Shown here in pieces: positions 2,165-5,148 of a stretch of 5,148 bases of DNA. The notes under the pieces were generated by a model. That model was not told the origin of the DNA. It saw nothing but the letters and a program-made list of their open reading frames with translations, and ran no database searches. The DNA is from a virus (lineage: Duplodnaviria > Heunggongvirae > Uroviricota > Caudoviricetes). The stretch lies in IMG/VR virus record IMGVR_UViG_2651869782_000020; one strand, 5' to 3'. Within the stretch, counting starts at the first letter, position 1. Each line of letters opens with the position of its first letter. Both the position numbers and the translations under genes were made by a program.

Positions 2165-3274
2165 ATGACCGACACCACCATGCAATTGCTCAGTCAGGGC
2201 ACAGACCCCGTGAAAATGCCGGATTTTGATATTCTCGCCGAGGGTAAAACGCTGTCCGGCGTGGCAGAACGCCTGATGAGCCTGTCACTGACCGACAACC
2301 GGGGATTTGAGGCGGACCAGCTCACCATCACGCTGGATGATGCCGATGACCAGTTGCAGCTACCGCCACGGGGCGCGCGTCTGACGGTTCTCATTGGCTG
2401 GAAAGGGGAACCGCTGACAGAAAAAGGCACTTACATTGTTGATGAAATCGCTCACGAAGGACCGCCGGACAGGCTGACTGTTTCAGCCAGAAGCGCAGAT
2501 TTTCGGGATGAATTTAATGTTAAACGTGAGGCGTCCTGGCATGATGTGACCGTTGAACGTGTGGTATCCGCCATCGCTCATCGGTACAGCCTGAAACCGC
2601 AAATCAGCGAAATGCTGATGGATATCGAAATCGACCACGCCGACCAGACTGAAGAAAGCGACATGTCCTTCCTTACGCGCATGGCGGAAATGCTGGGCGC
2701 AATCACCACGGTAAAAAGCGGTAATCTGTTATTCATCATGCCCGGCGGTGGCGTGAACGCACAGGGCCAGCCGTTGCCATCGTTCGCCATCACACGCAGC
2801 AGCGGCGATCGCCATCAGTTCCGCATTGCTGACCGCGAGGCGTATACGGGGGTACGCGCTTACTGGCTTGATCTTAATTACGGGAAAAAGAAAAAAGTCA
2901 GCGTGAAACGCCGCAAACCGCCAAAACCCAAAAAGGAGAAAAGCAGCAGCCGTGAAGGTGATTATATGGAAGGCGCGGAAGGCAATGTGTTTGTGTTACG
3001 CAAGACTTATCAGAACGAGCAGGCAGCAAGACGCGCAGCGGCGGCAAAGTGGCAGCAGCTACAACGCGGAGCCGCATTATTTTCCATCACGCTGGTGCGT
3101 GGACGTGCAGAACTCTACCCCGAAATGCATGGCACGGTAACAGGATTTAAAAGCGAGATTGATAATCAGGACTGGATTATTGCGAAAGCCGAGCACACCA
3201 TTGATAACAGCGGCTTTACCACACAGCTTGAGCTTGAGGCAAAAATCCCGGAATGGATAGCAGAAACAGAGTGA
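2165..3274 (+). CDS. D: Phage late control gene D protein / tail protein gpD (P2 D-like)
   Basis: Long plus-strand ORF. The preferred start is the ATG at 2165 (MTDTTMQLL...), which has a strong GGGAGGG RBS 5 nt upstream; the upstream in-frame ATGs at 2033 and 2135 lack an RBS. Length (369 aa) and sequence character fit the gpD family, and it sits directly upstream of ogr as D does in P2. It contains an unusual Lys-rich tract (KKKKVSVKRRKPPKPKKEK). Confidence 0.85.
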   Translation: MTDTTMQLLSQGTDPVKMPDFDILAEGKTLSGVAERLMSLSLTDNRGFEADQLTITLDDADDQLQLPPRGARLTVLIGWKGEPLTEKGTYIVDEIAHEGPPDRLTVSARSADFRDEFNVKREASWHDVTVERVVSAIAHRYSLKPQISEMLMDIEIDHADQTEESDMSFLTRMAEMLGAITTVKSGNLLFIMPGGGVNAQGQPLPSFAITRSSGDRHQFRIADREAYTGVRAYWLDLNYGKKKKVSVKRRKPPKPKKEKSSSREGDYMEGAEGNVFVLRKTYQNEQAARRAAAAKWQQLQRGAALFSITLVRGRAELYPEMHGTVTGFKSEIDNQDWIIAKAEHTIDNSGFTTQLELEAKIPEWIAETE

Positions 3275-3341
3275 GCAACTTAGACATATTAGCTCAAACT
3301 TAAACTGGCAAGTTTACAGTATAGAATTAAACATAAACGAC

Positions 3342-3370
3342 GGTCCGCTCCGTGTCAGAAGCGGACTTTG
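3342..3370. terminator. Putative bidirectional intrinsic terminator between convergent D and the cargo ORF
   Basis: Perfect 7-bp stem GTCCGCT (3343-3349) / AGCGGAC (3360-3366) with a 10-nt loop, followed on the plus strand by TTTG and on the minus strand by a T-rich run (cgtcgTTTaTgTTTaaTT). It lies between the D stop (3274) and the cargo ORF stop (3395). Confidence 0.35.
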
Positions 3371-3394
3371 TCATCCCTATGTAAGGTTGATTGC

Positions 3395-4417
3395 TTAATA
3401 CGCATTTAATTTAAATTTGTATTTGCCTTCTATGTAATGGATAAATTCAATTATGCTTTTTTCTATCGCATCTAATATATGAATATATCCATCCCGATTT
3501 AAGGTCCTATCCAACTCAAAGTGATGAACTATCCCATGTCTATATTGTATGATTTCAGAAATTCGATTCTCAAGAAAATCAACTGATTTTCCAATTCTTT
3601 TTTTCTTATAAAGAATCGCTCTCACATCTATATCCAGCCACTCTTTATATGCTTTGTTTAGGTGGGTTAAGTTTTGAAAAGTGTAATTTCTTGCAATAAC
3701 ACTTTCTATTGAAATATTTCCTTTCTCTATCTCAAGCAGAATATCAAAATCAACTTTTTGCTTATACGATGTTCTTTTTGCTATTGCGAAAGGATCGTAC
3801 TTTATAAGTATTTGAAAAGCTCTAGAGAAAAAGTATTCAAACATAGCAACCGCAAAAGGTACTAATCCATTATATATAACTCTACTGGGATCCATACATT
3901 GCATGTAATCAAAGTATTCGGATAAACCGCCATCTTCCGGTAGGTTTAATTTAATAGAAGGTTCAGGTAAGGCATGTTTAACAGCGGAAATCTCATGATG
4001 GACATGATTAAATATTGAAGAAATGCCACGACTGATCGGACTACTAGAATCCTTCCATAGAGGAGCGTACCTATTTTTCCCATAATCACCTATAAGTGTT
4101 CCACCAAAAAGACTCCTTGCGCCTTTTAGAACATCATTAAGCATTTTTACATCATGCCAACTAGCGCTATATAAATTACGCACATGCAATGCCCATTTAT
4201 TACCAGATATGTGTAATTCGTCATTTGAAACAGGATATATATCAGCCGAAACTCCATCTGTAGATTTGAAGTCCGTATCATCAAACCAAGAGTAATTCAA
4301 CGTTCCTTGGGGCCATTCCCTCAAATGTTTACACCTTTTAAAACCTAAATTTTCAAGGTAATTTTTAAGTTCGTTTCTAGTTGCTTTTTTAGGGTACAGC
4401 GTTATATCTCTTCCCAT
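3395..4417 (-). CDS. Hypothetical 340-aa cargo protein; candidate abortive-infection/defence protein with a C-terminal R-x4-H (HEPN-like) motif
   Basis: An uninterrupted 341-codon ORF in about 25-30% G+C DNA is very unlikely by chance. AGGTGA RBS lies upstream of the ATG (reverse complement of 4415-4417). The RHGIVHH motif was verified at nt 3521-3541 (reverse complement agacatgggatagttcatcac). No resemblance to P2 structural proteins. Confidence 0.8.
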   Translation of the reverse strand: MGRDITLYPKKATRNELKNYLENLGFKRCKHLREWPQGTLNYSWFDDTDFKSTDGVSADIYPVSNDELHISGNKWALHVRNLYSASWHDVKMLNDVLKGARSLFGGTLIGDYGKNRYAPLWKDSSSPISRGISSIFNHVHHEISAVKHALPEPSIKLNLPEDGGLSEYFDYMQCMDPSRVIYNGLVPFAVAMFEYFFSRAFQILIKYDPFAIAKRTSYKQKVDFDILLEIEKGNISIESVIARNYTFQNLTHLNKAYKEWLDIDVRAILYKKKRIGKSVDFLENRISEIIQYRHGIVHHFELDRTLNRDGYIHILDAIEKSIIEFIHYIEGKYKFKLNAY

Positions 4418-4549
4418 GCTTTATTCACCTGATATACAATATTTTAAATTTTAACTATTATGAACGTATGAATTTTCACATTGGATGTATGGAAGTTCAA
4501 CAACTATTGAAAGTTCAATTTTCACTCTTCGCACAGAGCGAGCTGTTAG

Positions 4550-4578
4550 TTGGAATTAGGGATCGTACAATCTAGAAT
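4550..4578 (+). promoter_or_regulatory. Putative sigma70 promoter for ogr (TTGGAA -35, 17-nt spacer, TAGAAT -10)
   Basis: -35-like TTGGAA at 4550-4555, a 17-nt spacer, and -10-like TAGAAT at 4573-4578, about 30 nt upstream of the ogr ATG. An AAGGGAGG RBS lies at 4596-4603. Confidence 0.35.
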
Positions 4579-4608: not shown

Positions 4609-4869
4609 ATGTTCCGTTGTCCGCTTTGTGGCGCATCTGCCCGTATCCGCACAAGTCGTCCGGAAAATGATTCAAACACCGTGCGGCAAAAGTATTACCA
4701 GTGTAACAATCTGGAATGCGGCGTATGCTTCTCAACACTGGAAGCTTTCCATAAATTCACATCGAAACACGCCTCCGGCGTTCACTCTTCAGAAGGTATC
4801 CCGTGGCATGAGCTACCAGCTTCACACAGGGGAAACAATCAGATGAGTTTGCCTTTACCTCAGAATTAA
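4609..4869 (+). CDS. ogr: Ogr/Delta-family zinc-finger late transcription activator
   Basis: 86-aa ORF beginning MFRCPLCGASARIRTSR, with a C-x2-C ... C-x4-C arrangement (C4, C7, C32, C37), the same Cys4 layout as P2 Ogr (MFHCPLC...CQNVNC, as I recall it). Strong AAGGGAGG RBS. It sits downstream of D as in P2 and 186. Confidence 0.85.
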   Translation: MFRCPLCGASARIRTSRPENDSNTVRQKYYQCNNLECGVCFSTLEAFHKFTSKHASGVHSSEGIPWHELPASHRGNNQMSLPLPQN

Positions 4870-5148
4870 CAAGCAGAATTGCCGGAGTAACAAAAAAGCG
4901 ATAGATTACGCGCGGGTGCCTTTCGGCTGATGGTCGGAGGGAATACCCGAAGGCCAGATGTGGAAAGGCCCCGGAAAACACTTTTGTTTAACCGAGGCCC
5001 TAACCGTCTACCCTAAGCAAGTGAAAGGTTAGCGCCTCTCCGGAAAAGGAGCAAGTGCTTGTATGGGTCCACCACATATTGCAATTTTTATTCTCTTTTA
5101 AAATATATTCCACGGGCGTCATTAGTGCGAGCGCCTTGTGGGGTCTTT

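Follow-up and report, generated by a model that had tools for sequence, protein, structure and literature searches.

HEPN domains are recognized by the arginine and histidine of an R-x4-6-H motif, by a polar residue (N, D or H) that follows the arginine and, typically, by an upstream acidic residue (PMC3710099). HepS of the Gifsy-1 prophage is inactive by default, and a phage protein activates its cleavage of tRNA anticodon loops (PMC13043305). DARNA and ApeA are single-protein HEPN tRNases that are activated by single-stranded DNA (ssDNA)-SSB or by deoxydinucleotides (DARNA: 10.64898/2026.02.22.705581). The AbiF-style RNA antitoxin is a co-transcribed upstream non-coding RNA of 100-130 nt that starts 168 nt upstream of the gene (PMC12373285). 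Integron cassettes are a reservoir of small, mostly single-gene anti-phage systems, HEPN-like ones included; the latter include Esos, Taranis and an AbiU2-type protein, and several of them protect by growth arrest (10.1101/2024.07.02.601686; 10.64898/2026.03.17.712381). Here we analyze an open reading frame (ORF) of 340 amino acids plus the stop codon, taken from the program-made ORF list (positions 3395-4417, minus strand), in a 5,148-nt stretch of tailed-phage DNA (IMG/VR record IMGVR_UViG_2651869782_000020; hereafter the window, for the whole stretch). The window comes from a P2-like (Peduoviridae) prophage, of which it forms the right end; the ORF lies in a block inserted into the prophage, and we refer to the product of the ORF as the cargo protein. 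A sequence-only reading had noticed a candidate HEPN motif near the C-terminus and proposed an abortive-infection RNase. We consider it reasonably probable that the cargo protein is a self-contained, single-polypeptide HEPN defence protein that is mobile between integrons and P2-like prophages.

The R-x4-H motif and the HEPN assignment

Translation of positions 3521-3541 on the minus strand agrees with the sequence-only reading in placing R-H-G-I-V-H-H at residues 293-299 of the cargo protein (R293, 3539-3541; H294, 3536-3538; H298, 3524-3526, all minus strand), where it forms the predicted catalytic R-x4-H. That reading had warned that so short a motif can occur by chance, and the warning was justified. 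When the cargo protein was shuffled 20,000 times, at least one R-x4-6-H was present in 90% of the versions and at least one R-x4-H in 54%, so that the match taken by itself carries no information. The cargo protein itself has a second R-x4-H, R308-H313, which is conserved at 16-18% only.

The evidence that carries the assignment comes from the family. Public data contain 346 sequences nearly identical to the cargo protein, and an exhaustive profile search yielded 344 relatives, many of them full-length (∼330-370 amino acids), with identities to the cargo protein as low as ∼19%. For a first alignment, 78 representatives were used (identity 19-62%, median 24%); the second had 89 sequences, in which the query was joined by 88 full-length relatives that are 19-86% identical to it (mean column identity 26%). 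In the larger alignment E194, R293 and H298 are the sole invariant columns, and H294 is at least 90% conserved; among the 78 representatives the same three residues are again at 100%, and H294, the polar residue directly after the arginine that is expected of a HEPN motif (PMC3710099), is at 95%. R293 and H298 are thus raised above chance because they are conserved across the family, which settles in favour of the motif the question of whether homologues retain it. E194 (3836-3838, minus strand) lies in a long helix (residues 178-207) and is a candidate second active-site residue; its context reads EYFFSR, and is not an exact E-x3-[KR]. Furthermore, F247, Q248 and N249 (3671-3679, minus strand), located in an insert between the HEPN core helices, are 99%, 96% and 70% conserved in the 78 representatives. 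The F-Q-N motif is retained in the very distant members P0205 and P0238, and the very distant members keep all three elements: R-H-K-I-I-H, the glutamate and F-Q-N.

The Pfam model HEPN_RiboL-PSP (PF18735) aligns, from position 29 to position 189 of its 191, with query residues 181-329 (E 2.5e-4, 21.4 bits). The same model is matched by all 27 of 27 close homologues (best E 2.3e-8) and by 60 of the 89 family members (best E 5.1e-9). Most close homologues carry a precomputed PF18735 match, and UniRef names some of them 'RiboL-PSP-HEPN domain-containing'. Isolated family members match other HEPN models instead, namely HEPN_MAE_28990 and HepT-like_2. To judge from these profile scores, the cargo protein appears to belong at the margin of the RiboL-PSP-HEPN Pfam family.

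Structure prediction with AlphaFold2 (AF2) places the motif in an all-helical C-terminal domain, as the HEPN assignment predicts. From 27 close sequences, AF2 gave a model with a predicted local distance difference test score (pLDDT) below 50 over residues 272-300, exactly the motif helix; the model built from the 89-sequence alignment was confident throughout (pLDDT 95.2, predicted template modelling score 0.89). In this model the cargo protein consists of an N-terminal alpha/beta domain (residues 1-125; 4043-4417, minus strand), a long linker helix that joins the two domains (residues 127-149; 3971-4039, minus strand) and the C-terminal HEPN domain (residues ∼166-340; 3398-3922, minus strand). 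Within the latter, an insert of short helices and a beta-hairpin (residues 237-281, the hairpin being 272-281) precedes the motif helix. The surroundings of the motif had been described as helix-prone, and the model indeed predicts a helix at 282-299, a loop at 300-307 and a terminal helix at 308-333. R-x4-H would hence sit at the C-terminal end of the penultimate helix, which is the position described for HEPN domains (PMC3710099). A two-profile sequence search of the PDB revealed no relative with a solved structure; its matches to stonustoxin and to a designed protein were dismissed as spurious.

With the PF18735 matches, the invariant arginine and histidine, the polar residue next to the arginine, E194 and the canonical helix position all pointing in one direction, the HEPN assignment is well supported by sequence and by predicted model topology, and only moderately by fold search. 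We consider it very likely that the cargo protein has a HEPN domain with a functional-looking site, and likely, judging from the HEPN literature, that it acts as an RNase.

The N-terminal domain has no family annotation: residues 1-125 gave no family match in Pfam, NCBIfam, PHROGs or PADLOC. Its predicted fold resembles generic binding-type alpha/beta domains only, with no enzyme family among the matches. Several of its residues are near-invariant (D89, 99%; N94, 95%), and S52, G55, S86, F104-G105-G106 and G113 are also conserved, and the domain looks like a conserved pocket or interface. Among the relatives it was never seen with another effector, and its association with the HEPN domain is obligatory. 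Matches of odd length that could have pointed to domain shuffling were traced to frameshifted fragments, and fusions to another effector were not found.

Genomic contexts of the cargo gene

The cargo gene is solitary, with no conserved partner gene and no flanking RNA element. An all-vs-all comparison of 135 ORFs from 26 loci (five contexts were compared first) revealed no recurrent neighbour family. No repeat array, tandem repeat or Rfam family was found beside the gene, and no conserved non-coding block flanks it except the integron attC site and a short leader (20-39 nt in the cassette copies) described below. Because this cassette leader is too short to hold it, an AbiF-style upstream RNA antitoxin is argued against. 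The sequence-only reading had named Abi_2, AbiD and AbiF as models to be searched; membership in that group was not borne out, since no match to Abi_2 (PF07751) was obtained with the query (E ≤ 10) or with the 89 family members (E ≤ 0.01), and no upstream RNA was found. Distant members that are known from short metagenomic contigs give little gene context.

The protein is found, at 51-87% identity, in Gamma-, Beta- and Deltaproteobacteria, Bacteroidota, Acidobacteriota, Spirochaetia, Latescibacterota and Cyanobacteria, and copies from distant phyla are 51-70% identical to one another. Such identities across many phyla point to a gene that is often transferred horizontally and is under strong purifying selection. 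Whatever the host, it stands out as a low-GC island (37% vs 61% in Aeromonas, 34% vs 54% in the window).

In unrelated hosts, the DNA shared beyond the gene consists of ∼60-80 nt right after the stop codon and of a GTTATAT box 38-39 nt before the ATG; the box was found at that distance in 10 loci. The downstream element has the form ...ATATAAC-AAACGCG...CGCGGGC-GTTAT, and in the fold of its bottom strand the R boxes pair, a small spacer stays unpaired, and a bulged stem and a variable loop complete the structure. We take this to be the architecture of an attC site, from general knowledge of integrons. The loci (388 kb, with flanks of up to 8 kb) were scanned with a relaxed RYYYAAC...GTTRRRY pattern on the bottom strand, with R-box pairing and a single hairpin enforced. 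This gave 22 matches on the gene's strand, against ∼2 expected (4 in two shuffled copies). By this structure-based scan, an attC site lies directly after the stop codon in five loci (L018, L024, L017, L026 and L032) and another ends 20-32 nt before the ATG in four (L017, L032, L033 and L023). Four more loci (L019, L020, L021 and L002) have an attC of the L018 type by sequence identity, and further attC sites are found one cassette away in several loci. We conclude that at least 11 environmental genomes carry the gene as an integron-type cassette. Clusters of attC sites that lack an integrase would account for the arrays equally well.

The attC behind the gene is 97-100% identical between loci (L018, 9030-9090; L020, ∼6187-6247; L017, 3402-3462), whereas the coding DNA of those loci is ∼75% identical only (Halomonas vs Desulfuromusa or Proteiniphilum); the attC is therefore either far more conserved than the gene or recently exchanged.

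Defence genes are found among the 135 ORFs that flank the 26 homologues. PADLOC and Pfam models identified a type VI retron reverse transcriptase (RT) in Hafnia, Thoeris ThsA/SIR2-STALD and type I restriction-modification subunits, together with a CBASS cyclase, MADS components, PARIS AriA, Lamassu LmuA, PADLOC candidate systems, integrases and transposases. The Hafnia locus merits a description of its own. In Hafnia paralvei (L015), the type VI retron RT (4965-5954; PADLOC PDLC02952, E 3e-97) is accompanied by two small co-directional ORFs, and all three lie 0.3-3 kb upstream of an 87%-identical homologue of the cargo gene (8001-9011). With the retron RT nearby, the gene is therefore in a defence island there, and not in a P2 prophage.

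In the window, the gene is part of a cargo block of 1,288 bp (∼3285-4572) that lies between the stop codon of gpD and the ogr promoter region, as delimited by composition and by BLAST comparison with phages P88 and 520873. The insert begins ten nucleotides past the gpD stop codon, and its GC content is 34%, against 54% in the flanks. On the left it is bounded by gpD, the P2 late/tail gene D (2165-3274, plus strand), which was assigned by tblastn and is annotated as tail protein or late control D in NC_049343 and P88. On the right lies a gene for an Ogr/Delta-type zinc-finger late transcription activator (4609-4869, plus strand), named after the annotation in related phages. In P88, Chuche, PhiR44_2, Shae_phiSM and P884B11, gpD and ogr are adjacent without an insert; the empty site in P88 and the four other relatives reads GGAACTTAGA/ATAGCGACAG...ATG(ogr) (P88 junction, L051 866-880). 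Phage 520873 has a different insert at the identical nucleotide (894 bp, 39% GC; L052 884-1777), which encodes a 132-amino acid protein with an N-terminal hydrophobic helix. The gpD-ogr junction is thus a variable cargo site in P88-like P2 phages, and the papers that we read do not name it as a P2 hotspot. The insert with the cargo gene is carried by 65 of 5,426 complete Escherichia coli genomes (∼1%), sequence type 131 (ST131) and enterotoxigenic E. coli (ETEC) strains among them, and is chromosomal in all of them; it is also present in phage 500465-2.

Enterobacterial copies (E. coli, Hafnia, Mixta and two viral contigs) have in common a module of ∼1.2 kb, in which the ORF lies between a leader of ∼118 nt and a conserved, imperfect hairpin of ∼50 nt, with no recognisable attC. 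No attC was detected by the scan in the window copy either. There GTTAAAAT lies at the distance of the cassette boundary box from the ATG, which could be a coincidence. Downstream of the cargo ORF, a terminator scan located the terminator-like GC hairpin GTCCGCTTC...GGAGCGGAC (3343-3366, minus strand; RNA fold z = -3.6), which is part of a longer imperfect hairpin also found in the Mixta and viral-contig copies. We treat it as a terminator or a possible relic because it has no canonical R boxes. A candidate cargo promoter, TTGAAC, 17 nt, TGnGAAAAT (an extended -10), was identified by reading the sequence (4472-4500, minus strand); it is kept in the Hafnia and Mixta leaders.

Some further features of the window and its relatives were recorded. 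A direct repeat, TGGAAGTTCAA / TGAAAGTTCAA, with copies 18 nt apart, lies in the cargo leader (4490-4518); each copy holds TTGAAC (-35-like) on the minus strand and could be a promoter or an operator element. The tail tube (311-823) and sheath (823-2007) genes are on the minus strand. The longest gpD ORF, from the ATG at 2033, has 413 amino acids, as annotated in phage 500465-2. The ATG at 2165, which is preceded by a ribosome-binding site, gives 369 amino acids, in agreement with the 366-amino acid annotation of P88; the additional part of the longer form (2033-2164) would enter the divergent start region of the sheath gene. Beyond ogr, the Rfam model of the sok antitoxin RNA (RF01794) matches at 4914-5065 on the plus strand (52.4 bits vs a gathering threshold of 59; E 6.7e-10); after it comes a gene annotated as a MokW-like host-killing gene of the hok/gef type, which occupies the window from ∼5060 to its end. 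The hok-like gene is gp52, right after ogr, in the circular P88 record; this type I toxin-antitoxin module is therefore phage-borne and not host flank. Finally, a 4.2-kb contig of a Firmicutes metagenome-assembled genome (L014; DEQA01000038.1, 'Planococcaceae bacterium UBA3378') contains a version of the E. coli P2-like segment that is 99.5% identical and in which parts of gpD and an ogr homologue are present. This copy is most likely due to mis-binning or contamination, and not to transfer.

Proposed role and alternative explanations

An invariant R-x4-H in a widespread two-domain HEPN protein, found both as an integron cassette and as prophage cargo, is therefore most likely that of a single-gene anti-phage suicide nuclease. 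In the mechanism that we propose, the four residues R293, H298, H294 and E194 would make up the site of an endoribonuclease that needs no metal. If other HEPN enzymes are a guide, dimerisation probably completes this site, with the protein oligomerising through its HEPN domains. The protein would be made inactive, with the N-terminal domain and the linker helix keeping the nuclease silent. The N-terminal domain or the linker would then sense an infection cue derived from the phage, and the triggered enzyme would cut cellular and/or phage RNA, most plausibly tRNA; comparable HEPN enzymes most commonly cut in the anticodon loops of tRNA. Cleavage would stop translation and abort the infection by growth arrest, so that the lysogen population and the resident P2-like prophage would be protected from competing phages. 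The enterobacterial version, with its own leader and terminator hairpin, would have been inserted as cargo between gpD and ogr.

The role in abortive infection that the sequence-only reading had proposed is inferred from the cargo, cassette and defence-neighbour context and from the analogy with HepS, DARNA and ApeA. With some reserve, we favour anti-phage defence as the role of the cargo protein. A more specific version, an unnamed single-gene immune system in which an N-terminal sensor (the D89/N94/S52/S86/FGG pocket) checks and triggers the HEPN RNase and which shuttles between integrons and temperate phages, is put forward tentatively, and we would not bet on it at even odds. If it were true, what the sensor recognises would be a small molecule or a specific product of the phage, and a direct route of gene flow from integron cassette pools to phage cargo sites would be documented.

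Several observations weigh against a defence nuclease. The PF18735 score of the query (21.4 bits) is below the curated gathering threshold of 28.4 bits; relatives at E 2.3e-8 and 5.1e-9 are above that threshold by scaling, and the family thus overlaps PF18735 with the query as a sub-threshold member. Foldseek searches of the PDB with both AF2 models gave no significant match. None of the PADLOC 2.0, NCBIfam and annotated PHROG models recognises the query, and the 89 relatives gave three isolated weak PADLOC matches (E > 1e-3) and none in NCBIfam. Defence-gene neighbours are present in a subset of the loci only. The candidate cargo promoter is a weak match to the consensus (8 of 12 positions), which is why the consensus scan missed it. 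We found no published RNase assay, toxicity test or phage challenge on family members; a literature search on 'RiboL-PSP' returned no functional study, and no characterised member of PF18735 was found.

Some of these observations would also suit a protein that is not a HEPN enzyme at all, with a motif that arose by chance. The frequency of R-x4-6-H in shuffled sequences, the second, unconserved instance at R308, the want of a significant HEPN match in Foldseek and the sub-threshold Pfam score of the query are in its favour, but this explanation is already largely refuted, and we regard it as extremely unlikely. It is also quite unlikely, if less so, that the domain is a HEPN domain that is catalytically silent or serves a non-nuclease function (ligand or nucleotide binding, or a scaffold), with the activity residing in the N-terminal domain. 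Some HEPN domains are non-catalytic (PMC3710099), and the near-invariant polar residues D89, N94, S52, S86 and FGG suggest a pocket. However, non-catalytic HEPN domains typically lose the R-x4-6-H (PMC3710099), whereas here no positions anywhere in the protein are more conserved than the arginine, the histidine, the polar residue next to the arginine and the upstream acidic residue, and the N-terminal fold matches binding-type domains and no enzyme family.

A nuclease that is active could serve ends other than defence. It could be the toxin of a toxin-antitoxin module, with an antitoxin RNA in the flanks (AbiF- or type III-like) or a protein antitoxin encoded elsewhere, and its main role would then be addiction, stabilising the integron array or the prophage. 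Against such a module, no neighbouring gene recurs in the 26 loci; there is no tandem repeat, Rfam family or conserved non-coding block beyond attC and the 20-39-nt leader, which leaves no room for an AbiF-type RNA; and neither the query nor the 89 relatives match Abi_2 or RnlA/RNase LS. Moreover, a lone toxin that crosses phyla without its antidote would be lethal unless auto-inhibited, and we judge the toxin-antitoxin explanation unlikely. The location of the gene beside late-gene regulators of a temperate phage, and the fact that some HEPN enzymes degrade cyclic oligoadenylate signals (10.64898/2026.02.22.705581), could instead argue for a factor that benefits the phage: an RNase directed at signalling nucleotides or RNAs of the host or of competitors, or one that processes phage transcripts. 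Related P2-like phages are without the gene, which is therefore dispensable for the phage cycle, and most homologues are outside phages, since very diverse bacteria have them in integron cassettes on the chromosome and in defence islands; such a counter-defence function is, in our view, very improbable.

If the reading of the cargo protein as a single-gene defence nuclease is confirmed, the E. coli pan-immune system would gain a further compact and self-sufficient HEPN protein for abortive infection, one that PADLOC 2.0 and NCBIfam miss, and its unannotated N-terminal domain would be a candidate new infection sensor. The presence of the gene both in integron cassettes and as gpD-ogr cargo links two recently recognised reservoirs of defence genes, and flags the gpD-ogr junction as an additional variable cargo site in the P2-like group. 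Copies from distant phyla share 51-70% identity, and this very high conservation makes the family a tractable system in which to study how a lone toxic nuclease stays silent. The advance is incremental and not conceptual, because the mechanism class (HEPN RNase, abortive infection) is well known; its most interesting features are the integron-to-prophage distribution and the novel N-terminal domain.

Comparison with known systems

To judge from profile searches, the cargo protein is not an Abi_2 (AbiD/AbiF) protein or an RnlA-type toxin of a toxin-antitoxin module, and it is not represented in PADLOC 2.0 or NCBIfam. AbiD and AbiF resemble it in being HEPN abortive-infection proteins that are often located on prophages or plasmids, and they are said to be nearest to the RiboL-PSP-HEPN branch; they have an upstream non-coding RNA of the RCd22 type, however, and at the cargo gene none was found. 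With RnlA/LsoA (RNase LS) only one domain aligns; no RNase LS/RnlA Pfam match was obtained with the query or the 89 relatives, and there is no adjacent antitoxin gene.

RiboL-PSP-HEPN (PF18735; Anantharaman et al. 2013, PMC3710099) is alike over the whole HEPN domain and has the conserved R-x4-H. The contexts that gave this family its name are not those of the cargo family, which shows no L-PSP fusion in the query and its relatives and no ParB among its most frequent neighbour families, and the cargo protein has its own unannotated N-terminal alpha/beta domain.

Esos and Taranis (10.1101/2024.07.02.601686) and the 'integron cassette HEPN' (PDB 3jrt) are, like the cargo family, single-gene HEPN-type cassettes flanked by attC; for Esos, a HEPN-like cassette of Vibrio cholerae, the likeness is by description only.

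DARNA/PD-T7-3 (10.64898/2026.02.22.705581) and ApeA share with the proposed cargo protein the union of a HEPN nuclease and a non-catalytic sensing domain in one polypeptide, and the logic of abortive infection. DARNA, a protein of 456 amino acids that forms a dodecamer, has its HEPN domain at the N-terminus and a large helical Pds5-like domain at the C-terminus, so that both the domain order and the sensor fold are unlike those of the cargo protein. The PD-T7 and ApeA-type models of PADLOC gave no match in the cargo family.

HepS (PMC13043305) differs in being a single HEPN domain with its motif at R100-H105, in forming a tetramer and in residing in a lambdoid phage, whereas the cargo gene is in a P2-like one and the HEPN domain of its product is at the C-terminus, after a 125-residue alpha/beta domain. 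Like the cargo gene, it is a solo prophage gene with no partner or inhibitor and with a canonical R-x4-H, and, judged by description, it appears to be the closest functional analogue of the cargo protein.

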